Positions 2,131 through 52,982 of a stretch of 52,982 nt of DNA are shown here, piece by piece. The notes under the pieces were generated by a model, which saw only the letters and a list, made by a program, of their open reading frames with translations, was not told the DNA's origin and made no database searches. The position numbers and the translations under genes were made by a program. The DNA is from Nemertoderma westbladi (Eukaryota; Animalia; Xenacoelomorpha), in contig JAUCBJ010008755.1 of assembly GCA_032718475.1 (NCBI GenBank), forward strand, positions 1 through 52,982. The letters are read 5' to 3'. Position 1 is the stretch's first letter, and each line of letters begins with the position of its first letter.

Positions 2131-2195
2131 GTACGCTTCTCATTGGCCTACCAATTAGCACCACACGAAAATAAATTGCCCCAAAATACAAATTT

Positions 2196-24871: not shown

Positions 24872-25190
24872 GAGGGCCTGGTAGGCCATACAGTCAGTAG
24901 GCAGGAAGTGGCGGGGTTAAGCCAACCCGAAGGAGGCCTGGTAGGCCACGTAGTTAGTAGGCAGGAGGTGGCGGGGTTGAGCCAACCCGAAGGGGGCCTG
25001 GTAGGCCACGTAGTCAGTAGGCAGGAAGTGGCGGGGTTGAGCCAACACAAAGGGGGCCTGGTAGGCCACGTAGTCAGTAGGCAGGAAGTGGCGGGGTTGG
25101 GCCAACCCGAAGGGGGCCTGGTAGGCCACGTAGTTAGTAGGCAGGAGGTGGCGGGGTTGAGTCAACCCGAGAGGGGCCTGGTAGGCCATG
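24872..25190 (+). repeat. 60-bp in-frame tandem repeat (~5.3 copies) inside the BEL gag region
   Basis: Encodes GGLVGHVVSRQEVAGLSQPE. Confidence 0.95.
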
Positions 25191-26063
25191 CAGTAGTAGA
25201 GAGAAAGGCAGGGGTAAATAGACCCAGCCGCAGTAGAGACATAGTGTCGACTGGAGAGGGGTGTAGAAGTGAAGTAAGAGGTAGTGGAGTGATATGTGGC
25301 GAGTGGGGGGGGGGGGGGGGGGGGGGGCTACAGGAGCCCCACAACGAGAAGTTAGCAGCGAAAAAAGGGGGGCAGAGAGTGCCCCACAGGCGTCGACGGA
25401 TAATGTGTGGGCCGAATTAGGTAAACCGCAACACCCGGCAACGGAGAGTAATAAGAGATTAGAGATAAGAGATTAGAGACGAGAGAAAGAGATTGCGAGT
25501 ATCCCCAGCGGCGTGCAATCGAGCAGAGAGAGACAGGTTGACGTTGCGAGAGGGCGGACGAAGCGTCAAGCCCGATCAGAAGAGGGAAGAAGAACAGTGG
25601 AGTTTAACCGGGAGGTCGACGAGAGATCTCACGAGCGGGAATACTGCACTGTAGAGAGAAGAAGAGAAGAAAGTAGAAGAAGTGTCGCCGCGAATGACAG
25701 GAGAGCGAGGACGGATAGCAAGCCGTCGGTAGTCGAGATGGGAACGGAGAGTCAGTGGGGTCGAACTTCGGGAGATTGCCGTCGTCCCGGAGAAACGCAA
25801 CCTGGCGAGGCGCACTACGCGTCGAGAGAGGGGTATGCGATGTACCGGTGCGAGGACGAGAGCAGTAGAGGGGGTCGAAGAGAAATTTCCGGCAGGATCT
25901 ACCTACCGACTGAGAATGCTGTAGCCGTGGGGAGGATTATTCGAGAAGATTAAACTTCGATCCCGAGCGACACATACAGACTGCAGGACATACTGTAGGC
26001 CTTACTGCACATACTATAGGCCATGCTGGCAGAGATAATGTAGGCGATAGGATAGCGCGGACG

Positions 26064-29876: not shown

Positions 29877-30103
29877 TGTGTGGTTATTTGGTAATAACCC
29901 ATGAAAACTAAGTAATAAAATATCTGTTATTTTATTGAGACTAGCCAGTTATCTCTCATTACTGCTGTACTGCCTATTGTACTGCCTCAGACATATCTGT
30001 GTCCAACGACCTAATCAAGCTAACTATCTCAGTATATATTTTTACACCACCACCAACATAGTTCCGTACTGTATCAAAACTGTTCCGTACGGGAACTACC
30101 ACA
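29877..30103 (-). repeat. Gypsy 3' LTR (227 bp)
   Basis: Matches 34949-35175 except for 2 adjacent substitutions (cccATgaaa vs cccGAgaaa). Confidence 0.95.
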
Positions 30104-30112
30104 CCCTCCCTC
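30104..30112 (-). promoter_or_regulatory. Polypurine tract
   Basis: GAGGGAGGG immediately before the 3' LTR. Confidence 0.8.
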
Positions 30113-30135
30113 GAGCTCCAAAGGAGTTTATATAG

Positions 30136-33100: not shown

Positions 33101-34809
33101 AGGATCAGCCCCTGGATTTCTGGTGAAATCACAATTTCAGTTCTCGCGGTATTATTTCCGGCGGAAATACTTGCGGGTAAGCGACCGTTAGTTTCTATTG
33201 GTAGACCATCGGCGGCGATCAAATCCATGTTAGAGGATAGGAGTAGATCCTTTTTGTTTCCCCCCAAATCGTGGAAGAGGTCTTCATTTAGAAGAGTTGC
33301 CGCCGCGCCGCTGTCGGGAAGCGCACGTTGGATTTGCCCTAATAGTTTACCAGTATAGGGGTTTGCGAGAGATACTGCAAGGTAATCGAGTTTACATACA
33401 GCATCTCTGTACTCCAAGCGGTTGATTGAAGTACGAGAAAGAACTGTGTTGGCAAAAGACCTGGCGGGTTTCTTTGCTGAACCACCAGATCTGCACATCT
33501 TTTTGTAGTGGCCAGTTTTACCACACCCATCGCATATTACCCCTCGGGCGGGGCAGGTTGCTCCTAGATGTTGTTCGTGCCCACAGTTTCCGCAATTGCG
33601 GGCGCGATCCCGATCCCCTTTGGATGTATTAAATCTAGGAGCTGGTACCGGGGTAGAGGGTTGGCCGGAAGACCTTCCGGGATGTTGGTTTCCGACATTT
33701 GGGCGCGACATTGGAGAGCGGCCCCCCCGCTGCCTGTACTGGGAGATCTTCCCAACGGAGCGGCAGCTACCCAGTACTTGCGTATTCTTTGCACTGGATT
33801 CGTAGTTCTGACATAGAGTTCGAGTTTCCTCCAGAGTGGGTCTGGGGAGTATTTTCAGCAGATCTTGCTGGGTTTCGGTATCGTATAAACCGACCAGAAT
33901 TTGAGTGACAATTTGATTATCGCGGCATTCAGTACACAGTTCAGCGAGTTCGGCGAGATGTCTGAGGGCCCGGTAAAAATCGTCAAAGTTTTCGTTGGCG
34001 CCCTGACGGCGTTTGTGAAACTGCATACAATCGAGCGCAATACTCCTCTTGGCGCGGAGGTGCTGTTGCAGTTTATCGAGGATGGCGGTTGTATCGACCG
34101 CGTCATCGTTTGGATCGAGTTCCAGAGTGCGCTTAACGACATCTGTAAGTCCAGGACCCAATGCAGTAATAAGAGTATGTACGAGTTCACCACGCGGACA
34201 ATTCTCCGCGCTCTGACGGCGAAGGTTACTGTCCCATGTCTCCCGCCAGCGACGGAAGGTGGGAAGTTCGATCGAGGTATCGAGTTTATCTAGGTTGCCG
34301 ATGTCGATCGTTCGCCGTCGGATGGGGATCGCAGGCGGTTGGGGAGTTCCCGGTACCGCGAGGTTTGGTTGAGGTTGACCAAACTGAACGAGAAGGGCCT
34401 GGAATCGTGCATCTGCTGCGGCTTGTTGCGCGTCCAGGCGGCGTTGAGCGTTTTCTTCTGAACGCCGTTGCTCTTCCCGGTATTCTCGTTGTTGATTTTC
34501 TAGGCGGCGTTGAGCCGCCTCCTGTTGCTGCGCCATAAACTGCATAAGTTTAGCGAGGCTAGGTTGAGCCTCAGTAGGCTGTTCGCGAAAGGGGTCTTCG
34601 TTCGTATCCGAATCTTCCTCCATTTCGGCGATCCGAGCCTGGAGTTTTTTCCGAAGTGACGCAGTGGATGGTCTCCCCTCGGTTGGAATACCCGCAGAGA
34701 TGCAAAACCCGATCAGATCTTGCCGGTTGAGTTGTTCCATATCCTCAGGAGAGAGTTGAGTCCAATCTAAAACTGGAGGAGTTCCAGCGGTGGGTTGAAC
34801 CTCGGCCAT
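30136..34809 (-). CDS. Gypsy gag-pol polyprotein (1557 aa)
   Basis: Zn knuckles CGNCGHEQHLGATC and CDGCGKTGHYKKMC; protease LPDSGA; RT LRLCVDLRGLN, DAAHGYWQ, IVDD; RNase H TDAS, ELELLAV, TDHQPL; integrase H-H-C-C and D(SADFF)-D(RSDGG)-E(HAEAAV). Confidence 0.96.
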   Translation of the reverse strand: MAEVQPTAGTPPVLDWTQLSPEDMEQLNRQDLIGFCISAGIPTEGRPSTASLRKKLQARIAEMEEDSDTNEDPFREQPTEAQPSLAKLMQFMAQQQEAAQRRLENQQREYREEQRRSEENAQRRLDAQQAAADARFQALLVQFGQPQPNLAVPGTPQPPAIPIRRRTIDIGNLDKLDTSIELPTFRRWRETWDSNLRRQSAENCPRGELVHTLITALGPGLTDVVKRTLELDPNDDAVDTTAILDKLQQHLRAKRSIALDCMQFHKRRQGANENFDDFYRALRHLAELAELCTECRDNQIVTQILVGLYDTETQQDLLKILPRPTLEETRTLCQNYESSAKNTQVLGSCRSVGKISQYRQRGGRSPMSRPNVGNQHPGRSSGQPSTPVPAPRFNTSKGDRDRARNCGNCGHEQHLGATCPARGVICDGCGKTGHYKKMCRSGGSAKKPARSFANTVLSRTSINRLEYRDAVCKLDYLAVSLANPYTGKLLGQIQRALPDSGAAATLLNEDLFHDLGGNKKDLLLSSNMDLIAADGLPIETNGRLPASISAGNNTARTEIVISPEIQGLILSKSVCQDLGILPAGFPQPASVSTVTISPSSISHVDASSATALLNRYGDCFDDEAAPLSIIPGPPMHIKLKEGATPHHVRGARPIAMALREEVKTLLDSLVRRNIIQRVEEPTDWAHPLTVTRKPNGKLRLCVDLRGLNSQVERPFYPTPNPRLKIAEISRTAKFFSVFDAAHGYWQVPLDPESQLLTTFVTPWGRYKHTRSVMGLISSGDEFNRRGDIALEGIPRMLKIVDDVLLYDDTLEEHLASIQRFLERCRSKGICLHPDKVQLAKSQVKFGGYLVGADGIRADPTKLSAIASFPRPETLTDLRSFIGLVEQLAPFSAEISQMLLPLRTLLSAKSPYIWNSDHSRAFEATKVALTSPPVLAPFDISLETKLVTDASRLKGLGYALLQRHGTDWRLIECGSRFISQTESRYATVELELLAVAWAIKKCHNYLLGLPIFTLVTDHQPLVTILDRKNFSEVENARIQRLKSRLAPYNFLTSWVKGKSHSIPDALSRSPVDQPTPADLIDDGETSFCLHSVTLSTVSAISGFDHLEDPILQDLATIARADPAYMALHAAVHDGFPLHTPNDPAVGAYWSLRNELTTDDDLILYGERIVIPAAARASTLERLHSPHQGMDKSLRRARQCIYWPGLTNDIRQSVASCPSCLRYRATPPKETFLEEPPPSRIFEDISADFFQLNGRHYIALVDRYSGWPDLNSFSGAPSAANTINSLKKWFSRYGIPTRLRSDGGTPLTDGATVSFLADWGVTPVTSSAEYPQGNGHAEAAVKALKSLLDKTGSRPDSPAFAEGLLALRNSPRETGLSPAQIVYGHPLRTRVPAHHSAFHADHQTTRRHLDTLTPPLRRAKIADYNKAARDLPPLAVNDPVVVQDPRSHRWDRKGTVVEAGPHRRYTVRTPSGRTISRNRRFLLRDSTSLPLTSTIPAHPVVLDNPATPGSPDPQAVADVDPTQPPKTVSWDPQLTQTRAIRQRTPSRYPTRQRRPPRRL

Positions 34810-34936
34810 CGTACCGGATATAGTGAGCTCGTAGACGGAAAAAGTCGTAGTCGGTTTACTCCACGTTCCGACGGATAGACGCGGTTAAACGCGTGTGCGA
34901 GGGTTGCAGGTCAGCAGGTAGGCAGTATACCGGTAA

Positions 34937-34948
34937 CTCGCAGCGCCA
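34937..34948 (-). promoter_or_regulatory. Primer-binding site (Ser tRNA-like)
   Basis: TGGCGCTGCGAG directly after the 5' LTR. It is complementary to a tRNA 3' end ...CTCGCAGCGCCA. The Ser assignment is from memory of tRNA-Ser 3' ends. Confidence 0.75.
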
Positions 34949-35175
34949 TGTGTGGTTATTTGGTAATAACCCGAGAAAACTAAGTAATAAAATATCTGTT
35001 ATTTTATTGAGACTAGCCAGTTATCTCTCATTACTGCTGTACTGCCTATTGTACTGCCTCAGACATATCTGTGTCCAACGACCTAATCAAGCTAACTATC
35101 TCAGTATATATTTTTACACCACCACCAACATAGTTCCGTACTGTATCAAAACTGTTCCGTACGGGAACTACCACA
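34949..35175 (-). repeat. Gypsy 5' LTR (227 bp)
   Basis: Direct repeat of 29877-30103. Confidence 0.95.
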
Positions 35176-35240
35176 CCTACCTACACGTACACCTACCTAC
35201 ACGTACACCTACCTACACGTACACGTACCTACACGTACCT
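35176..35240. repeat. Simple repeat (cctacctacacgtaca-type)
   Basis: Short tandem acctac/acgtac units abutting the LTR. Confidence 0.8.
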
Positions 35241-35590
35241 GGACTGACAACAAAATTCAGAAGTGCCGAAATGACCTTCATAAGGCGCAGAAAGAGTCCC
35301 GACTCAAACAGACTACAGCGGCCAAGAATGCAGTTAAAGCTGCATCTAGGTCCCTGAACAGGCAGTACTCTGTTAATCTACAGGAGCTAATAAACCAACA
35401 GGTTGATGCCATCAATGATGCTGACGACAGCAGGCAATCATCCCAGGCATGGAAATCGATCAATCTGCTTACTGGGCGGAAAAGCCAACCAACCATCAAG
35501 GTGAAGGCTGAATCACCAGCCGATCGCCTCAATGGTTGGAAAGCCCACTTTGAAAAGCTCCTCAATAATGACAGGGTATTGCCTGATAAC
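35241..35590 (+). mobile_element. Non-LTR retrotransposon (RTE-like) fragment, endonuclease-RT linker region
   Basis: Open frame ...SSQAWKSINLLTGRKSQPTIKVKAESPADRLNGWKAHFEKLLN matches the AW..IN..GRK / W..HF..LL linker pattern. Confidence 0.65.
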
Positions 35591-35984
35591 TTTATTTAAA
35601 TTAACAATTATATATATACCGGTAATAGAAAATTACCAAAAAATATTTGTGTAAACAATACCAATAATACCAATAAAAAAAACCAATACATATATCCCGC
35701 GGGGTTGATAAGCACATAATTGTGTTTCTTATTTAACTTTAGTAGTTATATCTAGGTAAGAGGTTGAACTAAGAAGTAAATTGAGATTAATTGGCATTTA
35801 TTACAATAAATTATTACAAAACAAAAACATTACAGTACTATAAATTTAATTTAAATTTGTTGAAAATTACAAAACGTAAATTACGTAAATTGCAAAAATT
35901 ATTACTATATATTAATTTATTGCATTAGTGGCCGAGGATAATATTTCATTCGTAAAGTTGTCCCAGCAATAAAATTCGTAGGCG

Positions 35985-36440
35985 CAGTCAATAATTTGTA
36001 CGTGTCGTGTAGTCAATGCAGTGGTTAAACTCATTTCCACGATCAATAATTCGTACACGGCGTTGTCGCAGCGGTTAAACTCATTTCCACGATCAATAAT
36101 TTGTACGCGGCGTCGACGCAGGGGTTAAACTCATTTACACGGAGGATAATTCGTACACGGCATCGACGCAGCGGTTAAACTCATTTCCACGATCAATAAT
36201 TCGTATGCGGCGTCGTCGCAGCGGTTAAACTCATTTCCATGATCAATAATTCGTATGCGGCGTCGTCGCAGTGGTTAAACTCATTGCCACGATCAATAAT
36301 TCAAACGCGGCGTCGTCTCAGCGGTTAAACTCATTGACACGGAGGATAATTCGTACGCTGAGTTGACGCAGTGGTTAAACTCATTGCCATGCTCGATAAT
36401 TCGTATGCAGAGTCAATGCACCAGTTAAACTCATCGTCAC
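35985..36440. repeat. 50-bp diverged tandem repeat, about 9 copies
   Basis: ggttaaactcat recurs at 36023, 36073, 36123 and so on to 36373, with a variant at about 36423. Confidence 0.92.
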
Positions 36441-36459
36441 AGCTATGAAACATCATCAG

Positions 36460-38253
36460 TGAGTTGGGGCATCATCCAGAGAATATTCCTAGCCTTCAAA
36501 CTCCACCACAAAGTAAAATAAAACTCGAGTTATTAACGTTTAAAGAATCAGCTAATCAGAGGCCGTATCTGGTGACCACAGTATGGTCGCGACCTGGGAC
36601 CCAAACTGGAGCTTCAGAGTACCGTCCAAAACATTTTCGCATAAAATTGTACCGTAAAATATCAAGGCCTGGGCACATTTTCGACGTTTGAAAGTAAGAG
36701 CCAATCAGGTGCCAGATATGGTGACCACGGTCTTGTCTCGACCTGAGACCCAGACTGCAGCTTCAGATTACCGGCCAAAACATATTCACATAATATTATA
36801 TCAAAAAATGTTATTGCCTATAGGCAGGACACCTACCGGTACACGGTCAGTAATGATCATGTCCTGACTGCATGATTTCGGTCTGATGAAATTTTCTGTT
36901 GCATGCATCAGATACCCATCAATGGCCTTTACCCACCTTGATGGTCAAAATCCATTCCGTCAGATAGCCCTGGGTGAGGTATTGAAATAACGCAATTACA
37001 TAGGCCTACAAGCCTACATAGGCAACTTTTAACTGCACCAAACAACCGTAATTTAGGCATTCAGAGTGCGCCCGAACATGGGGAACATTATTGCCAACCT
37101 TGGGCATCTGCCTACAACGTTTTAAATAACTGCCAGAAAGCCTAAAGCGTCCCCTTACATCTGTACATGTCTTAAGAACAGACAAAAGGTACCCGGTACC
37201 GCGGCGCAGTACTGCTGTCTGGCTGTACCGGATGTGGTTGTTCTAGGCAAGCAGTGCATACAGCTCGGACTGACAGTACCGATAGCAGACCCAGAGTACA
37301 CCGGCACTGCAGACTATGATTAGCTACATACAGACAGAGCTAGGTAGTAGCTACCGGCAGACCGGCATAGGTCAGTAGTATGAACACAGTTTTTGGAGCA
37401 TACTACCAACTGACTGACTTTTGCTGAACCAGGCTGACGACTCAGCCGTTTAATTAATTGCAGCGGGATTGGATAATTTATTAATTAATTTGGGGAACTT
37501 TACTAATTAGTAAAATCGTTAATTAGTTTGATTCAAAAGATTTTAGAGTAATTATCATTTGTAAAATAGTAAACCGCTTTGATACACCTTGTGAATAAGG
37601 ATTTGGGGGCGGGGGGGACAAAGCCCCCCCGCCAATTAGGTAATTAAGTAATTAGTTAATTACTAATTAACGGTAGGAGATACGGCATCGGCGCCAGAGA
37701 CTTTTTTGTGTAGAATAAAATTCCAAACAACTTTGTGATGTTACGTTTTTTCATAGCTCTTAGTGTTTTCGAGTTACGACGCTAATTAGTTTTCGGCTAA
37801 TTAGTACTAATTAACAGTAATAGGAGGGCCATAGCGATGACTGAACTTTTTTTAGATCTTACCGAGATGAACAAAAAAAATCACCGTTGCTAGGGGAAAA
37901 ACCAAATACTTTTCGAGAAAAATCAATTAGAAATTTTTAATCGCTAATTACTAATTAATTAATTAACAGATTTTTTCCACAAAAACTCCTAGCTATCGCG
38001 CTAGGGCCATCTACCAGATCGCGCAAACAGAATCGTTCTAGCTTTCGCCGTTCTCCTGGAAAAATCCTTTAAAAATCGACCTAAAAAAGATCAAAGCAAA
38101 GTGCCTACTTCTTGTCAGTTAGCTATATATAGTAAATTATGAGGTTTGAAGTTGGTGTTGATGGTGGGTTCTATGTTCCGTTAAATAGGCTGCAGTATCT
38201 ATACCTAATAATTCTCTGTCGAGCCTTGGGCTCTCCGGTTGCAGCCTAACCAT
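36460..38253 (-). mobile_element. Module D: non-coding element related to modules B (interior) and A (right end); left boundary not found
   Basis: 36466-37290 is homologous to 41754-42520. The right end shares gtgcctactt..tgtca, gttggtgtt, ctctgtcgagcc..gggctc and ccat with A. Confidence 0.55.
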
Positions 38254-39989
38254 CTAGAGTAGAGCGCAAATGAGGACATTTGCGCATGCAAGCATCACTG
38301 CGTGGGGCAATTTAATTAATAGTACTTTTGGTTTTATTGTGTTGTACCAACACAAAAATTGTAAATATGAAGATATGTTATTATCTATACCCATGCATTT
38401 GGAATCATACACAGGCGATGCCTTCAATTATTCAATTCAAAACATTGAAGAAATCTAAGTCGATTTGTAAGGCAGGTTCAAGCATATACATTTATTGTAT
38501 TGGTTAACTCCATTATACAAATCTAACGATTAATACCTCAGAAAACTTCTAACTACATGTAGTACTACTGGACCAGTATATTAGTAATAGCTTCAGTATA
38601 TTAGTAATAGCTTACAGACAGCTATAGCAACACCCACCCACCACCCTTAACATGATTACTTTAATTTCAAATAGACCATGGGTGATTGTTTAATGATGGT
38701 TCACCCAGCCATTTCATGTCTGGGTGAACCAAATGACTTTTGTATACAACCTGACTTCTAAATATCCTTATGTTTTATCACGAATACTATCATCAAAGAT
38801 CTTTGACCTTTTGACCCTTAACATTTAAACTTTTTCCATTTTTTATTTCATCTACCCCCACTAAGTCAACCATTGCGAACATTTTTGCTGCGTTACGTTT
38901 TTTGATAGCTGTACTCCTTATAGGTCAAAAGGTCACCGAAACGCTAAATTCTAGAACATTGACCTCTAGAGGTCAAGCACAGGGTCGCAGCCCAAAACTA
39001 ACGGCACTCTTCAGTAGCAACTCATACACTGCCTACAAAACGGCGTTGGTCCCATGTCCGTAGCTAGAGCCGTTCTCGAGATATTGGGGTGGGGCAATAA
39101 TTAATTATTAATTAATACATAACTAATTAACGCTTACACTTTTTGCATTTTTTATTTTACCTACCCCCACTAAGTCGACCATTGCGAACATTTTTGCTGT
39201 GTTACGTTTTTCGATAGCTGCACTCCTTATAGGTTAAAATGCCTCCGAAACCGAAAATTCTAGAACATTGACCCCTGGAGGTCAAGGACAGGGTCGCAGC
39301 CCAAAACTAACGACACTCTTCAGTAGCAACTCGTATACTGTCTACAAAATGGCGTCGGTCCCATCTTCGTAGCTGCAGCCATTCTCGAGATATCGGGGCG
39401 GGCCATATATTAATTAGTAATTAACGAATATCTCATTAAGGGTTGGTCGTACAGACTTGCCGAGAAGACTTTTATACTCGAAATTCCATTCTCTACAACT
39501 TTGCCAGAGAAAATTTTTTCGTAGCTGCCGCCGTTTTCGAGATACAGCGCTAATGAGATTTCGCTAATTAATAACTCATTAACGGTAATAGATATGGGTT
39601 CGCCGTGACAGGGTTTTTTGTAGAGCTCGTCGAGACCAACAATATCGCCAGTCATTGTTTATATAAAAAGTCTTTTAGTTTTCGAGATATATCGATTAAA
39701 AGTTTTCAATCGTTAATTACTAATTAATTAATTAACAAAATTTTTTGAAAAAAACTCCCAGATCTTAGATATTGGTCCTCTACACGATGCAAAAAACAGA
39801 ACGACCGTAGCTATTTCCCTTCTATGAGATGTGCCTACTTGTCACCCCACTGCATAAGCCTGTAAATATTGAGCAGGATAGGTTGGTGTTATATGTTTTG
39901 TGCTCTCTGTGTTTCGTTCTCTGTGGCGTTTTCTATGGTCTATGAGGTCTCTATCGAGCCCTTTGGGCTCTATCCACGCCTGATCCCAT
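38254..39989 (-). mobile_element. Module A: putative non-autonomous Helitron-like element (1736 bp)
   Basis: Second copy at 45731-47467. The minus strand ends with hairpin GCGCAAATG-tcct-CATTTGCGC, then 6 nt, then CTAG. Internal 309-bp duplication. Confidence 0.6.
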
Positions 39990-42861
39990 CCAGTGGATGG
40001 GCACCAGTTGACCTCTCTGTAGCCGAGAGCACTCCAAAAATATTTTATAACATAAAAATAGTACAAAATGAGCATTGGGGATGCATATTCCAAAACATTA
40101 TACCTGAGAACTTTTAAAAATTTCAATATTGAAAATTATGTTTGGAAATTTAGAAATGATTTCACATGCAAAAATGTTTAATATTTATAGGTATCGGATC
40201 TCCCGATACATAAACATATGTTCATGTATTTTATATTATGAGATAAAGTTTACTAACCTTATGTATCTCTATAATAGTGGTAAATACAGTAGGCCTATAA
40301 TATATAACGTGTACCAGATAGTGTTCATTATTTATCAATATTTTATTATATCCATGTAAATTTTTGATCAAGATAATATATATTTAGTGCAATATGGATT
40401 ACTCCTGATAACTTGCAAACGACAATAAAGCGAAAAAGACATACAACATTTATAATGATACAGTATTTATATATTATTTCATGTCAAATTATTTTTGAAG
40501 TTATATAAAGTTAAATTAGGGCCTACCTATAGTAATCCCACTTAAACTTTAAATTCTTATGTATTTTATAGAGATATCATCAATAAATATATCTTCTTAT
40601 CAATAGGGTTGACGAACAAATGAGATGAACTTCAGTAAATAAATCATCAATATTTAAAAGTCCCTTGTTTTTAATTCATCCTCACCATCACCACCCTTTA
40701 CAACATGACTTTATACCTTTGTCAGCCAATTTAATGATATTACTAATCACATTACTGCCAACAATATGACCACCACTAACCCCCCCCCCCCCCCCCTCCC
40801 CCAGATATATACTGTACTAGCCCGTCCATATCGAGGTGTCAGAAACTGGTCGCTCCAGTCGCGTCGCAAGCGACGCTCCTTCCGCTGAGAGTGACCATGT
40901 CCTTGATATCTTTTGTATTATAATGATTTCCTAGTTTTATCTTTTAACATATAATAAGAACAAAATCCATTAATATCAAATGTTACCATGGATAAATAGC
41001 GACCTGGGGGTGATGTTGTGTGTTTATTCAATTACATAGATAGGGAATATATACTTCTAAAAATAATATAAAATTGAATTCCTCTAAGCTAAATTAGTTT
41101 GCTTTATGATACAGTATTGCGTTTTTATATTCGCCTACATGTAATGATTACTAAACAAAAGCCAAAACTGATATTTTATTATATATAAAAAAATATATAT
41201 ATCAATATTATATAGTTTATCTTTACCTTTACCTTTAGTTTACCTTTATATCAAACATTCCTGGATTAGAGGTCGCCCATGGGTATTTCTGCCTATTAGG
41301 GGGTACAGGGAATACTCCTGAGATGGTTATAAATAATAATTTTGCAAACCAAATGCAACAAATATCGAGATATTGCGATTTTAAATTCGACCAATCAGAA
41401 ACGACCATAACTCCGGAACCGTAATTGCAATATCACTTCGATCTTCATCAACGGGATGGGATCGCACCAGAGAACATTTTAATATTTTATTCGCCGCACC
41501 AAAGTGAATGGATCTCGAGATAAGGAGTCTTTAAAAATTAACCAATCACAGCGCAGCTCTCCTTAAACGGTGGTTCCACCGCGATGGCGTTGTCGGCAAC
41601 GTAACGGGGATGATCCAAGGAACATTCTAAGCTTTTATTCGATGCTCCAAAGTTAATAGATCTCGAGATATCGCGTTTTAAAATTTCGACCAATCACAGG
41701 CCATGTAGCCAAAACCAGTAATCCAACAGCGATGAATCGTCTTCAGTCAGCTAGGGGACGTTCCATAGAATATTCCAAGCCTTTAAACTCCGCCACAAAG
41801 TGAATAAAACTCGAGTTATTAACGTTCAAAGAATCATCCAATCAGAGGCTGTATCTAGTGACCACGGTAAGGTCGCGACCTGGGACCCAAACTGGAGCTT
41901 CAGAGTACTGTCCAAAACATTTTCGCATAAAATTGTACCGTAAAATATCAAGGCCTGGGCACATTTTCGACGTTTGAAAGTAATAGCCAATCAGGTGCCA
42001 GATATGGTGACCACGGTCTTGTCGCGACCTGAGACCCAGACTGCAGCTTCAGATTACCGGCCAAAACATATTCGCATGAAATTATATCAAAAAATGTTAT
42101 TGCCTATAGGCAAGACACCTACCGGTACACGGTCAGTAATGATCATGTCCTGACTGCATGATTTCAGTCTGATCAAATTTTCTGTTGCATGCATCAGATA
42201 CCCATCAATGGCCTCTACCCACCTTGATGGTCAAAATCCATTTCGTCAGATAGCCCCGGGTGCCGGGTGCGATATTGAAGAACGCAATTTGGGCATTTAC
42301 AAATTTGGCCACTTTTTATCTGCTTCAAACAACAGTACTTTAGGCATTCAGACCGCGCCCGCACAGGGGGGGCATTATTGGCGCCCTTGCGCATCTGCCT
42401 AGAACGTTTAAACTACCTGCCAACAGGCCCAAAGCCTCCCCTTAAGAACGGACAACAGGTACCGCAGCGCTGTACAGGTGTACTGGCAGTGTGAGTGGTT
42501 CTAGCATACAGCTCTGACTGACCGATGATTCAAGATTTTGCAATACCTACTGAATCAGCTGTTGTTTATACAGTATCCTAGCAACCAGCTAATAATTTTG
42601 ATTAAATAAATTTATTATAACTTAAATCATTTTTTTTAACTATGATCCCAACGCCGGAAAATACTCAAAATTTTTCCTGCAACTATTTCGAGGGTGGCGA
42701 ATCCGATGGCGAAGACCGCGATGGCTGAAAATTTGCCGTTCTTCAGATCATGAGAATCTCGAAGTGCTGTAGATTGTTCTGCAAGGTGTGGAAGGCGGGG
42801 GTCCCCGTGCCTGTGTACCTCTACAAGGTACCGCTCTGCGAGCTGTGCCTGCCCCATCCAT
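39990..42861 (-). mobile_element. Module B: putative non-autonomous element (2872 bp), copy 1
   Basis: Near-identical tandem copy at 42862-45730. Bounded by CCATCCAG junctions. Internal ~149-bp subrepeats. Confidence 0.6.
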
Positions 42862-45730
42862 CCAGTGGATGGGCACCAGTTGACCTCTCTGTAGCCGAGA
42901 GCACTCCAAAAATATTTTATAACATAAAAATAGTACAAAATGAGCATTGGGGATGCATATTCCAAAACATTATACCTGAGAACTTTTAAAAATTTCAATA
43001 TTGAAAATTATGTTTGGAAATTTAGAAATGATTTCACATGCAAAAATGTTTAATATTTATAGGTATCGGATCTCCCGATACATAAACATATGTTCATGTA
43101 TTTTATATTATGAGATAAAGTTTACTAACCTTATGTATCTCTATAATAGTGGTAAATACAGTAGGCCTATAATATATAACGTGTACCAGATAGTGTTCAT
43201 TATTTATCAATATTTTATTATATCCATGTAAATTTTTGATCAAGATAATATATATTTAGTGCAATATGGATTACTCCTGATAACTTGCAAACGACAATAA
43301 AGCGAAAAAGACATACAACATTTATAATGATACAGTATTTATATATTATTTCATGTCAAATTATTTTTGAAGTTATATAAAGTTAAATTAGGGCCTACCT
43401 ATAGTAATCCCACTTAAACTTTAAATTCTTATGTATTTTATAGAGATATCATCAATAAATATATCTTCTTATCAATAGGGTTGACGAACAAATGAGATGA
43501 ACTTCAGTAAATAAATCATCAATATTTAAAAGTCCCTTGTTTTTAATTCATCCTCACCATCACCACCCTTTACAACATGACTTTATACCTTTGTCAGCCA
43601 ATTTAATGATATTACTAATCACATTACTGCCAACAATATGACCACCACTAACCCCCCCCCCCCCCTCCCCCAGATATATACTGTACTAGCCCGTCCATAT
43701 CGAGGTGTCAGAAACTGGTCGCTCCAGTCGCGTCGCAAGCGACGCTCCTTCCGCTGAGAGTGACCATGTCCTTGATATCTTTTGTATTATAATGATTTCC
43801 TAGTTTTATCTTTTAACATATAATAAGAACAAAATCCATTAATATCAAATGTTACCATGGATAAATAGCGACCTGGGGGTGATGTTGTGTGTTTATTCAA
43901 TTACATAGATAGGGAATATATACTTCTAAAAATAATATAAAATTGAATTCCTCTAAGCTAAATTAGTTTGCTTTATGATACAGTATTGCGTTTTTATATT
44001 CGCCTACATGTAATGATTACTAAACAAAAGCCAAAACTGATATTTTATTATATATAAAAAAATATATATATCAATATTATATAGTTTATCTTTACCTTTA
44101 CCTTTAGTTTACCTTTATATCAAACATTCCTGGATTAGAGGTCGCCCATGGGTATTTCTGCCTATTAGGGGGTACAGGGAATACTCCTGAGATGGTTATA
44201 AATAATAATTTTGCAAACCAAATGCAACAAATATCGAGATATTGCGATTTTAAATTCGACCAATCAGAAACGACCATAACTCCGGAACCGTAATTGCAAT
44301 ATCACTTCGATCTTCATCAACGGGATGGGATCGCTCCAGAGAACATTTTAATATTTTATTCGCCGCACCAAAGTGAATGGATCTCGAGATAAGGAGTCTT
44401 TAAAAATTAACCAATCACAGCGCAGCTCTCCTTAAACGGTGGTTCCACCGCGATGGCGTTGTCGGCAACGTAACGGGGATGATCCAAGGAACATTCTAAG
44501 CTTTTATTCGATGCTCCAAAGTTAATAGATCTCGAGATATCGCGTTTTAAAATTTCGACCAATCACAGGCCATGTAGCCAAAACCAGTAATCCAACAGCG
44601 ATGAATCGTCTTCAGTCAGCTAGGGGACGTTCCATAGAATATTCCAAGCCTTTAAACTCCGCCACAAAGTGAATAAAACTCGAGTTATTAACGTTCAAAG
44701 AATCATCCAATCAGAGGCCGTATCTAGTGACCACGGTAAGGTCGCGACCTGGGACCCAAACTGGAGCTTCAGAGTACTGTCCAAAACATTTTCGCATAAA
44801 ATTGTACCGTAAAATATCAAGGCCTGGGCACATTTTCGACGTTTGAAAGTAATAGCCAATCAGGTGCCAGATATGGTGACCACGGTCTTGTCGCGACCTG
44901 AGACCCAGACTGCAGCTTCAGATTACCGGCCAAAACATATTCGCATGAAATTATATCAAAAAATGTTATTGCCTATAGGCAAGACACCTACCGGTACACG
45001 GTCAGTAATGATCATGTCCTGACTGCATGATTTCAGTCTGATCAAATTTTCTGTTGCATGCATCAGATACCCATCAATGGCCTCTACCCACCTTGATGGT
45101 CAAAATCCATTTCGTCAGATAGCCCCGGGTGCCGGGTGCGATATTGAAGAACGCAATTTGGGCATTTACAAATTTGGCCACTTTTTATCTGCTTCAAACA
45201 ACAGTACTTTAGGCATTCAGACCGCGCCCGCACAGGGGGGGCATTATTGGCGCCCTTGCGCATCTGCCTAGAACGTTTAAACTACCTGCCAACAGGCCCA
45301 AAGCCTCCCCTTAAGAACGGACAACAGGTACCGCAGCGCTGTACAGGTGTACTGGCAGTGTGAGTGGTTCTAGCGTACAGCTCTGACTGACCGATGATTC
45401 AAGATTTTGCAATACCTACTGAATCAGCTGTTGTTTATACAGTATCCTAGCAACCAGCTAATAATTTTGATTAAATAAATTTATTATAACTTAAATCATT
45501 TTTTTTAACTATGATCCCAACGCCGGAAAATACTCAAAATTTTTCCTGCAACTATTTCGAGGGTGGCGAATCCGATGGCGAAGACCGCGATGGCTGAAAA
45601 TTTGCCGTTCTTCAGATCATGAGAATCTCGAAGTGCTGTAGATTGTTCTGCAAGGTGTGGAAGGCGGGGGTCCCCGTGCCTGTGTACCTCTACAAGGTAC
45701 CGCTCTGCGAGCTGTGCCTGCCCCATCCAT
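42862..45730 (-). mobile_element. Module B', copy 2 (2869 bp)
   Basis: By eye it differs from copy 1 only in poly-C length and a few substitutions. Confidence 0.6.
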
Positions 45731-47467
45731 CTAGAGTAGAGCGCAAATGAGGACATTTGCGCATGCAAGCATCACTGCGTGGGGCAATTTAATTAATAGT
45801 ACTTGTGGTATTATTGTGTTGTATCAACACAAACATTGTAGATATGAAGATATGTTATTATCTATACCCATACCTTTGGAATCATACACAGGCGATGCCT
45901 TCAATTATTCAATTCAAAACATTGAAGAAATCTAAGTCGATGTGTAAGGCAGGTTCAAGCATATACATTTATTGTATTGGTTAACTCCATTATACAAATG
46001 AAACGATTATTACCTCAGAAAACTTCTAACTACATGTAGTACTACTGGACCAGTATATTAGTAATAGCTTCAGTATATTAGTAATAGCTTACAGACAGCT
46101 ATAGCAACACCCACCCACCACCCTTAACATGATTACTTTAATTTCAAATAGACCATGGGTGATTGTTTAATGATGGTTCACCCAGCCATTTCATGTCTGG
46201 GTGAACCAAATGACTTTTGTATACAACCTGACTTCCAAATATCCTTATATTTTATCATGAATACTATGATCAAATATCTTTGACCTTTTGACCCTTAACA
46301 TTTAAACTTTTTGCATTTTTTATTTCATCTACCCCCACTAAGTCGACCATTGCGAACATTTTTGCTGTGTTACGTTTTTTGATAGCTGTACTCCTTATAG
46401 GTCAAAAGGTCACCGAAACGCTAAATTCTAGAACATTGACCTCTAGAGGTCAAGCACAGGGTCGCAGCCCAAAACTAACGGCACTCTTCAGTAGCAACTC
46501 ATACACTGCCTACAAAACGGCGTTGGTCCCATGTCCGTAGCTAGAGCCGTTCTCGAGATATTGGGGTGGGGCAATAATGAATTATTAATTAATACATAAC
46601 TAATTAACGCTTACACTTTTTGCATTTTTTATTTTACCTACCCCCACTAAGTCGACCATTGCGAACATTTTTGCTGTGTTACGTTTTTCGATAGCTGCAC
46701 TCCTTATAGGTTAAAATGCCTCCGAAAACGAAAATTCTAGAACATTGACCCCTAGAGGTCAAGGACTGGGTCGCAGCCAAAAACTAACGACACTCTTCAG
46801 TAGCAACTCGTATACTGTCTACAAAATGGCGTCGGTCCCATCTTCGTAGCTGCAGCCAATCTCGAGATATCGGGGCGGGCCATATATTAATTAGTAATTA
46901 ACGAATATCTCATTAAGGGTTGGTCGTGCAGACTTGCCGAGGAAGACTTTTATACTGGAAATTCCATTCTCTACAACTTTGCCAGAGAAAATTTTTTCGT
47001 AGCTGCCGCCGTTTTCGAGATACAGCGCTAATGAGATTTCGTTAATTAATAACTCATTAACGGTAATAGATATGGGTTCGCCGTGACAGGGTTTTTTGTA
47101 GAGCTCGTCTAGACCAACAATTTCGCCAGTCATTGTTTATATAAAAAGTCTTTTAGTTTTCGAGATATATCGATTAAAAGTTTTCAATCGTTAATTACTA
47201 ATTAATTAATTAACAAAATTTTTTGAAAAAAACTCCCAGATCTTAGATATTGGTCCTCTACACGATGCAAAAAACAGAACGACCGCACCTATTGTAGTTC
47301 TCCATAAGAGCCTACTTGTCAACCCCCCTCCTAAGCCTGTAAATAATAATCTGGATAGGTTGGTGTTATATGTTTTGTGCTCTCTGTGTTTCGTTCTCTG
47401 TGGCGTTTTCTATGGTCTATGAAGTTCTCTGTCGAGCCCTATGGGCTCTATCCCCGCCTGATCCCAT
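45731..47467 (-). mobile_element. Module A', copy 2 (1737 bp)
   Basis: Colinear with 38254-39989, with scattered substitutions and the same termini. Confidence 0.6.
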
Positions 47468-48559
47468 CCAGAGATGGTGGAGTATACGCATACTCCACTG
47501 TTGCAAGAATTACTTCATTAATCATGAAGATTACAAATTACTTTAATAAATTATTAAATCTATTAAATATTTCATTATTATTTATGAAAAAAATATCCAA
47601 ATCATGAGAAAATTATAATAAATTGAAATATACAATAAGAAAAATAACTTGAAAATAATTAAATTCTAAACAATTTCATTTTTAAGATACATGGCTTAGT
47701 CTATATAACTTACTTGCGTAATTATATAATCGGACATATACAATAACTGCGCCTGTGTCCTGCTGACACAGGCGCAAGGCCCCCCCCCCCATAATTATTA
47801 ATATGGATAAAGTTAAATGTATGTTTTTTACTAAACTTATTTGTCCAAATTGCTCCATCTCATGATTATTATAAGCTTGGTAGAATCATGCCATTGTTCT
47901 GGTTCGTCTATGTTTGGTAGAATTGTGACATCATCTGATTGGTTTAAGTTTGGTAGAATTGTGTCCTTCTTTGTTGTTTAAATGCAGTAGAATATCACCA
48001 TAGTATTAAGTCTAGTAGAATCATTAAATATATAGTTATAATAAAGTCTTGAAGCCAGGCAAAAAACTTTTAAATTATATTATTATTATAATTTAATAAT
48101 AAATAAAAAAAAAATTAAATAATAATGTGTTTCGTCCGGCATCAGGACTCATCAGCAGTACTGCCATGTACTGGACACCTGGGATCTAGCAAAGGGTGTC
48201 CCGCTTCCGCTAGCGGAGGTCTGGTAGGATGCGGCTACGTCCAGGATGAGGATAGACAATGTACCCAGCAGTCATTTTATAAACATAGCAATGTATGGAT
48301 ATGCGAAATAATGGTTTGTTAACAGAGTGAAAAGCTACAATAACACAGGGCATGCGCATCAGTCATACAGCCAAAGGTTCGAAAACCAAAGGGTTTGTGC
48401 CAAGTAGATCCTTTGAAATTCACTAAATTACATACATTTCACATGTCCATATAATGCTATGTTTATAAAATGCGTGCCAAATACATTGGGTGACCACGAA
48501 GGAAGGGTCCCACAAGGAAGCGGACCAAGGCGAAGGGTCCAAGAAAAGAAAGTCGAATA

Positions 48560-48845
48560 TCGAGTCTTCTTTCTTCTTATCTTATCTCATCTTATCTTAT
48601 CCTATCATATCCTATCCTATCTTATCTTATCTTTATCATATCGTGTCGTGTCGTATCGTATCGTATTGTATCGTATCTTCTTTCTTCTTGCTTCTTTCTT
48701 CTTGCTTCTTTCTTCTTTCTTCTTGCTTCTTTCTTCTTGCTTCTTTCTTCTTTCCAGTCTTATCTTATCCTATCTTGTTTTATCTTATCCTATCTCATCT
48801 TATCTATCTTTATTCTTCAGGCTTCTATCTTTCTTCAGTCTTCAG
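48560..48845. repeat. Compound CT-rich microsatellite
   Basis: (tctta)n, (tcgta)n and (ttct)n blocks. Confidence 0.9.
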
Positions 48846-49399
48846 TCCAAGGGAAGGGACTACGACAAAAAAGGGTTGTGGACATAAGCCCCCATGTGAT
48901 GAATACCAGGTTTTCACTAACAGAATGGTTTAATCAAACCAAAACGTTAAAATAATTAGTATTTGTACAGGTAATAAGATAGAAACGCTATAAAACATTT
49001 AATAAGATTAAATTTGTCAAATACAACTTCTTTATATATAAAATTTCCATAAAATTCAAACCGGAAAGTAGAAATCTGGTATTCTTCACATCGGCAGACA
49101 GACGGATACAGGGAGGCAGGGGTCAAGAAAGAGCAGGGGAAGGCAGGAAATTAAAAAATAATAAACTAATAATATATAATATAACTATAATAAATAGTAA
49201 CAAACTCAAGGATGAAGTCTGCTATACTACTAAAAATACTACTACTATGTCATGCGAGCTCAGACAAAAAGAATTTTATAACCAAATAATATATACTTAT
49301 TAATTAATAATCTACAACCAACCATTTAATGCATAAATGAGTGATAAATATATTTTGTGATATCAGTTTTGGTGGGTCATAAGCTTGTGTTAATGTCAT

Positions 49400-49920
49400 G
49401 CCTGCTTATTTCATCTATATTCATTTCTTAATCAATTTATGCTTCAGTTGGAAGCAGTGATCTCAATAAATGACTATGTCATGAATTATTAGCTGCCTGC
49501 TTATTTCATCTATATTCATTTCTTAATCAATTCATGCTTCAGTTGGAAGCAGTGATCTCAATAAATGACTATGTCATGAATTATAAGAGGAAATAGATAG
49601 GAGGTACTTGTCCAGTGTCTCATGAGTTTGTATTAATCTCATGGGCTGCCTGCTTATTTCAACTATATCCCATTCTTAATCACTGCATGCTTATGTTGGA
49701 GCAATGATCTCAATAAATGACTAGGTCATGAATTATTAGAGGGATTAGATTGGCAGCAAGCTTTGTCTTTATTTGTCATGGACGTTTCCAGATGGCATAT
49801 TATTTTTAGATTCATGCACCATGTATAAAATGATTTATCATGAAACTTTCCAGAATAGCATTTTATTTTTTTAGTCTCATGCACCATGTATAGAATGATT
49901 TATCATGAAACTTTCCAGAT
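49400..49920. repeat. Short local duplications
   Basis: A ~90-bp unit gcctgcttatttca...gtcatgaattat at about 49400, 49495 and 49648, and tcatgcaccatgtata...gaaactttccaga twice at about 49812 and 49877. Confidence 0.85.
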
Positions 49921-50156
49921 TGCAATATGATTATAATATACTACTACTACCACTAGTAGGTCAAGCGAGCTTGGACAGGACATGAATATATATATATATA
50001 TATATAAAAGTAAACATTGATAGATACTTGTTCTCTACCATGTGAATCTATGTATGTACACCATAAACTTCAATAATAATTTAATACATAAAAATCACAA
50101 CAAATGGGAGAAAATATATAAAATGATTCAGTTTACTACTAGATTTCTGGTTTGTA

Positions 50157-52982
50157 CTAGAGTTGATCTGTGTCTTCAAATATGGTTCGCCCAACACCAG
50201 TTTGATTAGAGCCAAGGCGTCCTAGTCGTTCCAACTGTAAATTCCAACTACTCGGTTGAATGGCATATTCCTGTGCAACTTTTAGTGCTGTGAGTAGTAC
50301 TTCCTCTGGCAGTGTATGATAACTAGTTCCTCTATGTATATATCTTTCAACTTGCAGCCGCATGTCTTTTAGATCATCTTCACTCGCATCCACTGGGAAA
50401 CCGTGTATAAATGCCAGAGGTACCCATGGCATAAATTGGGTGTTTCGTGTAAAAATGCTTCCATCGCCTCGGTTATGTTCTCGTAGTCTTGTAATAAGGT
50501 GCCTTTTAGTTTGACCTACATATGACACGTTTGGGAATTTTGTTGATATAAGTATATAGACAACGCCCGCAATATATTCAGGAATTTCCATACTTCGGAA
50601 GGTATAGGGAAAGTCAGTATTTGGTTGAAAGTTTTGAAAGGCAACCCCAGTAATAGCCGCAAGACGTGAGGTGATATATGCCGCCCACTTGTCCTCCTTA
50701 TGAAGCAGTAGTCTTATCGTTGACAAAGTCTGTAGTTTTATGCCAACAAAGTAAAGTGTAGTAAGTAGTAATACACGGGAGAGTAATACATTTAGCTGTG
50801 ATCGCTCCCATAGGCGGAGGTGTTTCCTTGCTGTTTCAATATTATTTACTTCTGTAGCCATAAGTGGACATTGATCTCCCATTATTCGATGGATTGTATT
50901 TGCTTTATAATACCGGAGAGGAAATTGAAATCGGTGACCTTTCATAAGACCTGCGCCCACTATTTCATCTGCAGTGTACCGCCTCCTTACCTCAAATATA
51001 GGCCAATCTTCTGAATCCTGAATAGTAAGGTCACGCTCTCCTGGAGGAACGAGGCGAAGAGTAATGGTAGCATCTTCACTCTGTGGATTTTCGGGTAGGA
51101 CCACAACAATACCAAGCTGACCTTGTGAAAACTTTACATTCCCAACACTTTTATTATATGTAAGACGAAGAACTGCTCCAACAAATACAAGTAATTCCTC
51201 AGGCTCCAAGCTGATACGATCGATCCGAGTTTTGGAATAACCTGTAGCTGGCTTCCATCGCAAGTTATCATAAACTTCATCTACTGCTGTCATATGCTGA
51301 ACAACAATGCCAGGTTCACGAACCTTCTCCTCAAGAAAGTGTTTTATTACTTCTTGTTCTCCTAATTTAGTTGAAACAACACGCATGGCATGCTCTGGTA
51401 CATCGTCCCATGTTGGTGGAAATTTGGCATTATTAGAAATGATCATGACTATATCTTCTATAACATCTGGGGGAATAATTGGGGAGCGGATCGCCTCGAG
51501 GACAAACTGTAGGTTAGGGTCTGCTGCGCATCGAACATATTCTTTCAGTAGTATTACCTTAAATGCAGTTCCTAAATGGATTGATGTCCAGAATGGTTTT
51601 CCATCAATGGGGGGTAGTTGGTATGGGTCTCCATTTGCAATTACAAGTTTACCTCCAAAAGGTTGGTCTGTGTTCATTATGTGCTTCATTACTGTATCCA
51701 AAACACCATACTGTTCTGCAGAAATTAGTCCAATCTCCTCAATAACTAAAACATCCATTCTTTGTAATAGAACCATTTTTTTAGCGTCAGAACGTTGTAG
51801 CGCCTTAATAGTATGTGATGCCATTGAGTCAGGTGAAAGTTTTTTCTTGGTAACCTCTAAGGGAAATAACTGGTGTAAGTGTATTCCTCCTAGTGAACGT
51901 GCCCTTTCAGATGTTAAAGATGTCAATACCACATTCAATCCACAACACATAGCATAGAGGGAAACTGCTTGCACTAGAAAGGTCTTACCTGCTCCTGGTG
52001 GGCCAACAAAGCATGGAAAACGATTGGAAAGGTGTGTTGGATCCTTGAATTCGTCAATTGTATTCTTTGCCTTGTTGAGAGCAATACCCTGCTCAATAAT
52101 GCTGGCCTCTGACTGATGAGGAACTGTTGGTAAAATAGGATCCCAGAATATTGGACTTTCAACTGTAGCTCCTACCACTTCGGTTATATTTGGTACATCA
52201 TCCATCTTGGGAGCCATGGCACCAATAAGATTCTTTGCCAATGTTGTACGACGCTCCATCTCAATAATGTTAATAACCTCCTCGGCCTTCTCCTTTATGG
52301 CTATTTCGGAAACATCTGGGAGATCACTGGTATATTCCTCACCTCCACCCAGTACAGAATCGATGGCTTCTTTGGACAGTTTGACGTATTCTTGGAATTG
52401 TCTTTTACGGAGAGGGAGATGGATGCAGAGCTCATCAAGATATCGCCTAAGAACTGCTGTAATTTCCTCTTGAACTATATTATTTGAGTCTCGAATAAGT
52501 CCTACACGTTGGAACGGTATACGGAAACCTGTGGTATTATCGAATATATCAAATTCTGTCTCATAAGTACCTAATGCTAGTATAATATGGTATATGAATT
52601 TAATTCGTTCCCTTGGATGTACATCTTTCACTACTGGTATAACTTCACCACTTTCACTTTCATCTACAAATATTTTAGTTGTTGGCCGTTCTTCTGCATT
52701 GGCTTCTGTGTCCAGGCGAATGAGGAGGCAATGAAGGAAATCTAAACTACATTGAATAATAACTGGTTCCTGTATTTCTCCAAGTGTGTTAACATAAGCT
52801 CTAAGTTTTTCGATTCCAGATCGTCTCAATTTAATATTGTTACCACAGCCATCATAAAGAGGTATTGTCAAAGGATCGCAAAGAAATATATCACTGTTTC
52901 CACTGAACCTTCCTTTATTAGGAACTACAATCTCATGATATAGAGCAAGTTTCTTTATAGCGAGCAACTCTGGTGGACGGAT
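50157..52982 (-). CDS. PIF1-family (SF1B) DNA helicase fused to a C-terminal GIY-YIG endonuclease; 5'-partial
   Basis: Helicase motifs: GPPGAGKT, LVIEEIGLIS, PFGGKLVIANGDPYQLPPI, LKEYVR, QFPLRYYKANTIHRIMG, QLNVLLSRV. Nuclease motifs: GVVYILIS...SYVGQT...RLREHN...W...QVE. The frame is open to the window edge (ATC CGT CCA CCA GAG TTG), so the true start lies outside. Confidence 0.9.
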   Translation of the reverse strand: MRPPELLAIKKLALYHEIVVPNKGRFSGNSDIFLCDPLTIPLYDGCGNNIKLRRSGIEKLRAYVNTLGEIQEPVIIQCSLDFLHCLLIRLDTEANAEERPTTKIFVDESESGEVIPVVKDVHPRERIKFIYHIILALGTYETEFDIFDNTTGFRIPFQRVGLIRDSNNIVQEEITAVLRRYLDELCIHLPLRKRQFQEYVKLSKEAIDSVLGGGEEYTSDLPDVSEIAIKEKAEEVINIIEMERRTTLAKNLIGAMAPKMDDVPNITEVVGATVESPIFWDPILPTVPHQSEASIIEQGIALNKAKNTIDEFKDPTHLSNRFPCFVGPPGAGKTFLVQAVSLYAMCCGLNVVLTSLTSERARSLGGIHLHQLFPLEVTKKKLSPDSMASHTIKALQRSDAKKMVLLQRMDVLVIEEIGLISAEQYGVLDTVMKHIMNTDQPFGGKLVIANGDPYQLPPIDGKPFWTSIHLGTAFKVILLKEYVRCAADPNLQFVLEAIRSPIIPPDVIEDIVMIISNNAKFPPTWDDVPEHAMRVVSTKLGEQEVIKHFLEEKVREPGIVVQHMTAVDEVYDNLRWKPATGYSKTRIDRISLEPEELLVFVGAVLRLTYNKSVGNVKFSQGQLGIVVVLPENPQSEDATITLRLVPPGERDLTIQDSEDWPIFEVRRRYTADEIVGAGLMKGHRFQFPLRYYKANTIHRIMGDQCPLMATEVNNIETARKHLRLWERSQLNVLLSRVLLLTTLYFVGIKLQTLSTIRLLLHKEDKWAAYITSRLAAITGVAFQNFQPNTDFPYTFRSMEIPEYIAGVVYILISTKFPNVSYVGQTKRHLITRLREHNRGDGSIFTRNTQFMPWVPLAFIHGFPVDASEDDLKDMRLQVERYIHRGTSYHTLPEEVLLTALKVAQEYAIQPSSWNLQLERLGRLGSNQTGVGRTIFEDTDQL

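Follow-up and report, generated by a model that had tools for sequence, protein, structure and literature searches.

Helitron-type rolling-circle elements are known to join head to tail. Helraiser forms circles with exact head-to-tail junctions, and its own end-to-end junction is cut precisely (PMC4778049, PMC5876387). Plants and bats are described as having Helitrons in tandem arrays and with head-to-tail junctions (PMC5876387, as cited there), three tandem copies lie in Metarhizium and one FoHeli was inserted 2 bp from the 5' end of another copy (PMC5148889). The Helitrons of Paramecium, a third clade, appear to be sequence-targeted (PMC13085455), and TrwC and the Rep protein of adeno-associated virus (AAV) use copies of the site that they nick themselves as integration targets (PMC6049929). 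Target choice by Helitrons is poorly known, and the one element that has been reconstituted accepts nearly any AT as insertion site. Helitron arrays at centromeres were reportedly described by Xiong et al. in 2016. Here we analyzed a 52,982-nucleotide stretch from Nemertoderma westbladi (contig JAUCBJ010008755.1 of assembly GCA_032718475.1; the window), in which six elements, named D, A, B, B', A' and C, form a head-to-tail stack. Five of them are gene-less and the sixth carries a PIF1 helicase with a GIY-YIG nuclease; the stack is likely of Helitron type and probably grew by insertion of each new element at the start of a resident one.

In the open literature we found no description of a RepHel-GIY-YIG lineage, of its ends or of exact stacks of mixed families; the search covered few supplements, and a description may exist in these, in Repbase reports or in journals under subscription. 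The text of PMC4224331 contains no mention of tandem or head-to-tail copies, and that of PMC8788227 no mention of GIY. The lineage is barely described, and the locus offers candidate ends (ATGG...hairpin-CTRG) and candidate non-autonomous partners for it.

Results

Five junctions share one crossover word

The first-pass annotation of the window had described a cassette-like array with five junctions in the motif CCATC[C/T]AG. We located this 8-mer at all five places, with starts at 38250, 39986, 42858, 45727 and 47464, and the plus-strand module order D-A-B-B'-A'-C held, giving five pairings of which no two are alike. The word is CCATCTAG at 38250 and 45727 and CCATCCAG at 39986, 42858 and 47464. 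The C/T base tracks the right-hand module (T before A, C before B and C), and the base preceding CCATC goes with the module on the left, being A where this is D, C where it is A and T where it is B. Because the flanking bases follow the two modules in this way, the crossover lies within CCATC, as had been proposed.

Between 35001 and 48500 the 8-mer occurs five times on the plus strand and not once on the minus strand, compared with 0.36 occurrences expected under a second-order Markov model; the five words are not independent sequence, as they comprise only three left ends and three right ends. A sixth CCATCCAG was found at 27893, in a retroelement-like stretch, and no boundary was seen there.

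On the minus strand, which is also the strand of the open reading frame (ORF) in C, every junction reads ...CTRG/ATGG..., and all are co-oriented with the ORF. Read on this strand, the 3' end of A meets the 5' end of D at 38250..38257 (CTAGATGG), the 3' end of B meets the 5' end of A at 39986..39993 (CTGGATGG), and the 3' end of B' meets the 5' end of B at 42858..42865 (CTGGATGG), the last being a head-to-tail joint within one family. The 3' end of A' is joined to the 5' end of B' at 45727..45734 (CTAGATGG) and the 3' end of C to the 5' end of A' at 47464..47471 (CTGGATGG). Element limits given below follow the CTRG/ATGG convention and may be shifted by up to five bases.

We considered whether Helitron-type elements with the short target GATGG could simply cluster in repeat-rich chromatin and come to lie end to end by chance. 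The window is almost entirely made of repeats, and short target preferences are known from other Helitrons (A^T, T^T and TNAT^; PMC11417382, PMC5148889). However, all five junctions lie at element starts, and 19 of the 24 plus-strand CCATC 5-mers beyond 34900 are not junctions and have no boundary, so the 5-mer alone does not explain the placement. Chance clustering seems to us quite improbable.

Elements of the stack

All six elements are assigned to the minus strand. Self-alignment delimits the non-autonomous elements A (38254..39989, 1736 bp) and A' (45731..47467, 1737 bp) from junction to junction; they are 96.8% identical and differ at 56 positions. The alignment of the non-autonomous B (39990..42861, 2872 bp) with B' (42862..45730, 2869 bp) likewise spans junction to junction, with 99.8% identity, three substitutions and a three-base poly-C indel. 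The ends of the modules are as exact, and their neighbours as varied, as the annotation had stated, and we agree in regarding the modules as mobile elements whose ends meet exactly. Random segmental duplication, already judged unlikely there, does not explain five different exact pairings.

Element A has two 309-bp internal repeats (38818-39424), and the internal repeats of B are about 148 bp apart. Apart from a 123-aa stop-to-stop frame across the B/B' junction, no frame of at least 100 aa was found inside A, A', B and B'. Element D (35596..38253) is non-coding and has an intact 5' end; its 3' part is lost, and contigs have loose ends at 35595/35596. It is a mosaic with a B-like part (36439-37157, 88%), an A-like part (37907-37989, 84%) and an array of 50-bp repeats (36018-36434), and it is homologous to A over the first 110 bases of the 5' end. 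Some internal segments are common to A, B and D. Element C (47468..52982) is likely autonomous. It has a 3' end and a tail of 2.7 kb rich in repeats, followed by the terminal portion of a transposase gene, and its 5' part lies beyond the window. A scan of 34900-52982 with Rfam gave no matches.

We also observed that 20 of the 56 differences are concentrated in a patch of some 70 bases close to the 5' end (approximately 39808-39875 in A and 47285-47353 in A'), which suggests either subfamilies or recombination in this patch.

The same elements and enzyme could have built the stack off the chromosome: either Rep fused circles of different elements at their junctions, or blocks were copied by read-through rolling-circle replication, the multimer being inserted or reshuffled as a unit. 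This would fit the 99.8% identical head-to-tail pair B/B', and both tandem arrays and circles joined exactly head to tail have been described for Helitrons (PMC4778049, PMC5876387). On the other hand, as A and A' differ at 56 positions, at least two source copies, together with three families, would have to meet, and read-through alone copies existing junctions and gives no new pairings. Circle fusion before insertion is the main rival explanation, and we regard it as unlikely. Head-to-tail circles explain B/B' but not the four mixed junctions, which draw on two different copies of A and on three families or more; for this reason we favour targeting of the start of the resident element. Insertion at the terminus of a resident element was the proposal of the annotation, and it is our best inference as well.

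Anatomy of the element ends

We analyzed the ends of the elements on the minus strand. The 3' end of A contains a hairpin with a 9-bp stem and a 4-nt loop (38264..38285), 6 nt before CTAG, and A' has the same hairpin (45741-45762). In C the hairpin (47477..47498) again has a 9-bp stem and a 4-nt loop and is placed 5 nt before CTGG. The stems of A and C are perfect and unrelated in sequence. The 3' terminus is CTAG in A and CTGG in B and C, in agreement with the CTRR ends of HLE1. The 5' ends have hairpins behind ATGG, with the stems GAGCC/GGCTC in D (38221..38233) and GAGCCC/GGGCTC in A (39956..39970) and A' (47434-47448), and a 4-bp GCTC/GAGC hairpin in B (42833..42843) and B' (45702-45712). 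Further strong hairpins, with a 12-bp stem in the tail of C (47748-47776) and a 10-bp GC stem in D (37608-37633), are possibly alternative terminators or nested element ends.

Element B has a short inverted repeat of 10-11 bp. Its 3' copy (TGGATGGGCA) lies at 39994..40003, with no strand assigned, and the partner copy (42850-42860), one base longer, begins at the T of A^TGG. This start favours a nick at A^TGG, one of six cut points that fit GATGG. The GATGG shared at the junctions could be the target, the element end or both. It contains no TC on the ORF strand, and the 5' TC of HLE1 would be present only if the elements ran on the opposite strand.

The 3' ends of all three families can pair with the junction over 4, 6 and 5 bp (chance 0.088, 0.0025 and 0.024, respectively, in a comparison defined post hoc, after the pattern had been seen). 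The pairing may be a remnant inverted repeat or, more boldly, a guide for target choice.

These ends also bear on the possibility that the modules are cut-and-paste or tyrosine-recombinase elements, integron-like or Crypton-like, with CCATC as a duplicated or crossover site and the helicase gene as a bystander. Each module is seemingly flanked by a 5-bp direct repeat, and B has the inverted repeat described above. In A, however, no terminal inverted repeat longer than 6 bp was found, so ordinary terminal inverted repeats with target site duplications, which the annotation had named as an alternative, do not account for its ends. Moreover, the hairpins and CTRG ends share their orientation with the RepHel-type gene, and the three long frames of the window that were scanned contain no tyrosine integrase and, outside the Gypsy element, no recombinase or transposase of such kind. 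We consider this explanation highly unlikely.

A helicase-nuclease, probably of the RepHel type

The ORF in C (50157..52982, minus strand) encodes 941 aa and is open on its 5' side at the window edge. It contains a PIF1 helicase (PF05970, E 1.1e-13) with the Walker A motif GPPGAGKT and the Walker B motif IEEIG, followed by a C-terminal GIY-YIG nuclease domain (residues 806-866, 50385..50567; E 8.9e-6, above the cut-off). The closest solved relative of the nuclease domain is SLX1, which the family profile matched with an E value of 1e-12. A search among longer proteins gave 14 matches, 13 of them close, with identity up to 45%; close relatives with names come from Styela clava, Cyprideis torosa and Hyalella azteca. 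The full protein search returned 283 clusters at E up to 1e-30, and the nearest Atlas cluster combines PIF1 and GIY-YIG, diatoms being the commonest (4 members with known phylum). Hosts of this Rep-PIF1-SLX1-like family include tunicates, crustaceans, diatoms and more. A six-frame scan of the window detected no second remnant of the transposase family.

We collected 162 family proteins, 69 of which have at least 1800 aa. Among these long relatives a HUH motif is present in 63, approximately 640-790 residues ahead of Walker A, and 62 have a two-tyrosine motif downstream of it. The C-terminal GIY-YIG was detected in 59 of the 69, in comparison with none of 17 HLE2-like and none of 9 bacterial proteins, the tail being scored with a profile built from six members of the same set. 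In several family members the GIY-YIG is decayed. Walker B reads DE in 27 and EE in 28 of the long members, with the remainder unmatched, and some members from Styela have N-terminal OTU domains.

The Rep region of one relative, P0012, was modelled with a predicted local distance difference test score of 83.9 (38 sequences). The model matched Helraiser (7lcc) with Z 16.4 over 316 residues, a root-mean-square deviation of 3.8 and 16% identity, while the next match had Z 6.5; in Foldseek, Helraiser was the only clear match (E 4.5e-7). Judged by sequence and by this model, the protein family is of the Helitron RepHel type, the Rep domain of the C copy being predicted from its relatives, and the 941-aa frame is likely the back end of a RepHel-type transposase. 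The annotation had named the adjacent helicase-nuclease as the likely driver of the array, and we agree; it belongs to a Helitron-type HUH Rep-PIF1 family.

A 50-sequence family profile scored Helraiser at 95.6 bits and bacterial and yeast Pif1 at 99-102 bits. PF14214 was above the cut-off in 3 of 12 relatives scanned. DUF6570, a marker of HLE2 (PMC11417382), was absent from all 12 and present in the control P0017. GIY-YIG occupies the C-terminal place of an apurinic/apyrimidinic (AP) endonuclease, and insertion at T^T is not indicated, since CTRGATGG contains no TT. In a quick helicase tree, 32 family rows, hand-picked from the 162, lie beyond a long branch (Shimodaira-Hasegawa-like approximate likelihood ratio test 100) that sets them off from the 15 rows of HLE2-like and the 9 of bacterial proteins. 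The comparison set was 15 of the 17 HLE2-like proteins (the label is ours; 10 of the 17 carry DUF6570) and 9 bacterial helicases; P0178 and P0181 were left out, as they have no usable Walker A stretch. From this tree of family, HLE2-like and bacterial rows, the family is likely a separate clade.

Other helicase-bearing or similarly ended elements were considered as well. Academ elements have a RecQ helicase and make target site duplications, and CryptonS elements have TATGG ends and a tyrosine recombinase; both were set aside, as the gene here is of the PIF1 type and its relatives contain Rep. Replitrons were excluded by the helicase in the frame and by the two-tyrosine motif of the relatives, the Replitron Rep being a one-tyrosine protein without a fused helicase (PMC10288648).

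Contig support and searches for related DNA

We compared contigs of four runs, from at most three samples, with 34900-52982. Three runs covered all 30 bins and the run X4 covered 18 of 30. No contig of the four runs spans the array, and its order rests on the assembly; among the matches listed, none of the five junctions coincided with a joint or with a loose end. One X3 contig begins exactly at 39986, the first C of the junction, as expected for copies of B that share CCATC and differ just before it. Contigs of X2 had like depth (280-372) over the tail of C and the ORF, a weak hint that the two are one unit.

Mis-assembly, or microhomology-mediated rearrangement, at a short shared word would be helped by the near identity of B and B' and would be consistent with the lack of a spanning contig. 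Against this, both element ends are intact at each of the four mixed junctions, A is clearly not the same copy as A', and 30 of 30 bins were covered in three of the four runs. The window also contains gapless satellites of several kilobases, which suggests a long-read assembly. An artefact or a rearrangement of this kind is, in our opinion, very improbable.

Pattern searches in other DNA did not confirm any match as a related locus, neither among 301 in metagenome contigs nor among 108 and 1 in viral contigs. A 20-base pattern from the 5' end of A gave six matches, all due to chance; the contigs concerned are GC-rich (54-67%) and otherwise unlike the array.

Neighbouring features

The broken end of D is abutted by a 358-bp fragment (35238-35595), which we take from its frame to be LINE-like (long interspersed nuclear element); its depth is by far the highest in each of the four runs, and contigs have loose ends at either side of it. 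A Gypsy-type long terminal repeat (LTR) retroelement occupies 29877-35177 on the minus strand, with LTRs 99% identical and an unbroken 1582-aa frame (reverse transcriptase, RNase H, integrase); no matching bases of the kind left by target duplication are present next to the two LTRs. A decayed retroelement at about 23000-29876, presumably BEL/Pao-like to judge from its motifs, is cut short by the Gypsy LTR and contains the CCATCCAG at 27893. Between satellite arrays lies a ROCO-type gene (15173-18226, minus strand), a single frame of 1017 aa with Roc, COR-A and a weak C-terminal CARD. The satellites are at 5322-10606 (49 bp x 108), 10797-14636 (30 bp x 128) and 18886-20871 (35 bp x 57). A transfer RNA-like stretch inside a repeat at about 2185-2265, minus strand, was seen by eye and is possibly the head of a short interspersed nuclear element.

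Discussion

We propose the following mechanism for growth of the stack at the start of resident elements. The minus strand would be the transposed strand, and Rep would nick within GATGG, most likely at A^TGG. The helicase would then peel off the strand, and the circle would close with a junction reading CTRGATGG. The target would be the same origin sequence, that is GATGG together with the nearby GAGC hairpin of a resident element, and the incoming element would be joined at the start of the resident one. Every insertion would recreate the target on both sides, and as each leaves a usable site on both sides, a one-way stack of related non-autonomous elements could grow. The pair B/B' may be a rolling-circle dimer or the product of two such insertions, and the SLX1-like domain might trim branched intermediates or nick the target.

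Several observations weigh against this proposal. The evidence comes from one locus, and insertion into the chromosome and fusion of circles before insertion would lead to the same final structure. The Rep domain of the C copy lies beyond the window edge at 52982, and the basis for treating the tail of C and the ORF as one element is position and the weak depth hint. The 3' hairpin of B is weak. The window itself already offers two left neighbours, which would also explain the start of the X3 contig; the X3 run is possibly related to the source DNA, and one of the four runs may be the source itself. The opposite strand is also partly canonical (5'-TCYAG...hairpin...CCA-3', with A/T joins). Helitrons with reversed ORFs are known, and the minus strand is likely, though not certainly, the transposed one.

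If growth at resident starts is true, the elements would target themselves, a strategy of low harm by which mixed arrays of repeats are built, and their transposase would be a eukaryotic HUH integrase of narrow specificity. The locus supplies an exact junction substrate for an in vitro test of origin-directed insertion. A bolder proposal is that the family is a further major clade of eukaryotic rolling-circle transposons and its transposase an integrase specific for the element's own origin, with the cut chosen by pairing of the 3' end with GATGG, so that ordered arrays grow ever longer; we consider it unlikely. Guided target choice is known from IS608-type elements, and if guided pairing is true here, retargeting would be possible by changing a few DNA bases.

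The annotation had called the array integron-like. Integrons likewise consist of ordered units joined at a shared crossover, but the array has no gene cassettes, and each of its units is a selfish element that has ends of its own. With a likely driver of a Helitron-type family, Helitron end anatomy and gene-less modules with internal tandem repeats, the comparison with integrons did not hold beyond analogy.

In TrwC and AAV Rep, too, a HUH nuclease is combined with a helicase, and the DNA that comes in is joined to a copy of the site which the protein itself nicks (PMC6049929). These are plasmid and virus systems, without eukaryotic transposon arrays, and the analogy concerns the mechanism only.

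The Helitrons of Paramecium share with this family very long ORFs, a position outside HLE1 and HLE2, likely in the case of the family here, and satellites inside the elements, as well as apparently sequence-specific insertion, absolute orientation bias and a target word like the element end (PMC13085455). Their target, in contrast, is the C4A2 telomeric repeats, they end in CCAA, and GIY-YIG is unmentioned in the main text (PMC13085455).

With HLE2 (Helentron/Helitron2, HINE/DINE-1, FoHeli) the family shares a nuclease behind the helicase and OTU domains in some relatives. The array elements resemble HLE2 in hairpins at both ends, in central tandem repeats of the non-autonomous copies, which non-autonomous Helentron derivatives also carry (PMC7492417, PMC4067079), and in the short inverted repeat of B. 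Inverted repeats at the termini, short and asymmetric in HLE2, measure 10-11 bp in B and at most 6 bp in A. The differences are the GIY-YIG instead of an AP endonuclease, the lack of DUF6570 and of T^T, and the separate branch of the helicase tree. The moss HLE2 family HelenSM92 has a captured GIY-YIG, the sole mention of GIY-YIG in a Helitron that we met (PMC11417382).

Canonical Helitrons (HLE1, Helraiser) also combine a two-tyrosine HUH Rep, here predicted from relatives, with PIF1. A 3' hairpin with CTRR, exact head-to-tail junctions and non-autonomous derivatives are shared as well, and the 3' hairpin and CTRG of A and C resemble the right end of Helraiser, a 19-bp palindrome 11 nt from the CTAG end (PMC4778049). 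The array elements differ from HLE1 in the 5' end, which is ATGG or TGG and not TC, and in having a 5' hairpin. Their family also differs in the C-terminal SLX1-like GIY-YIG and in the low identity of its Rep region to Helraiser (16%), and the stack joins different families at exact ends. In summary, tandems of Helitrons of the same family are known, and the stack described here is, on balance, a variant of Helitron biology with likely targeting of the elements' own ends.

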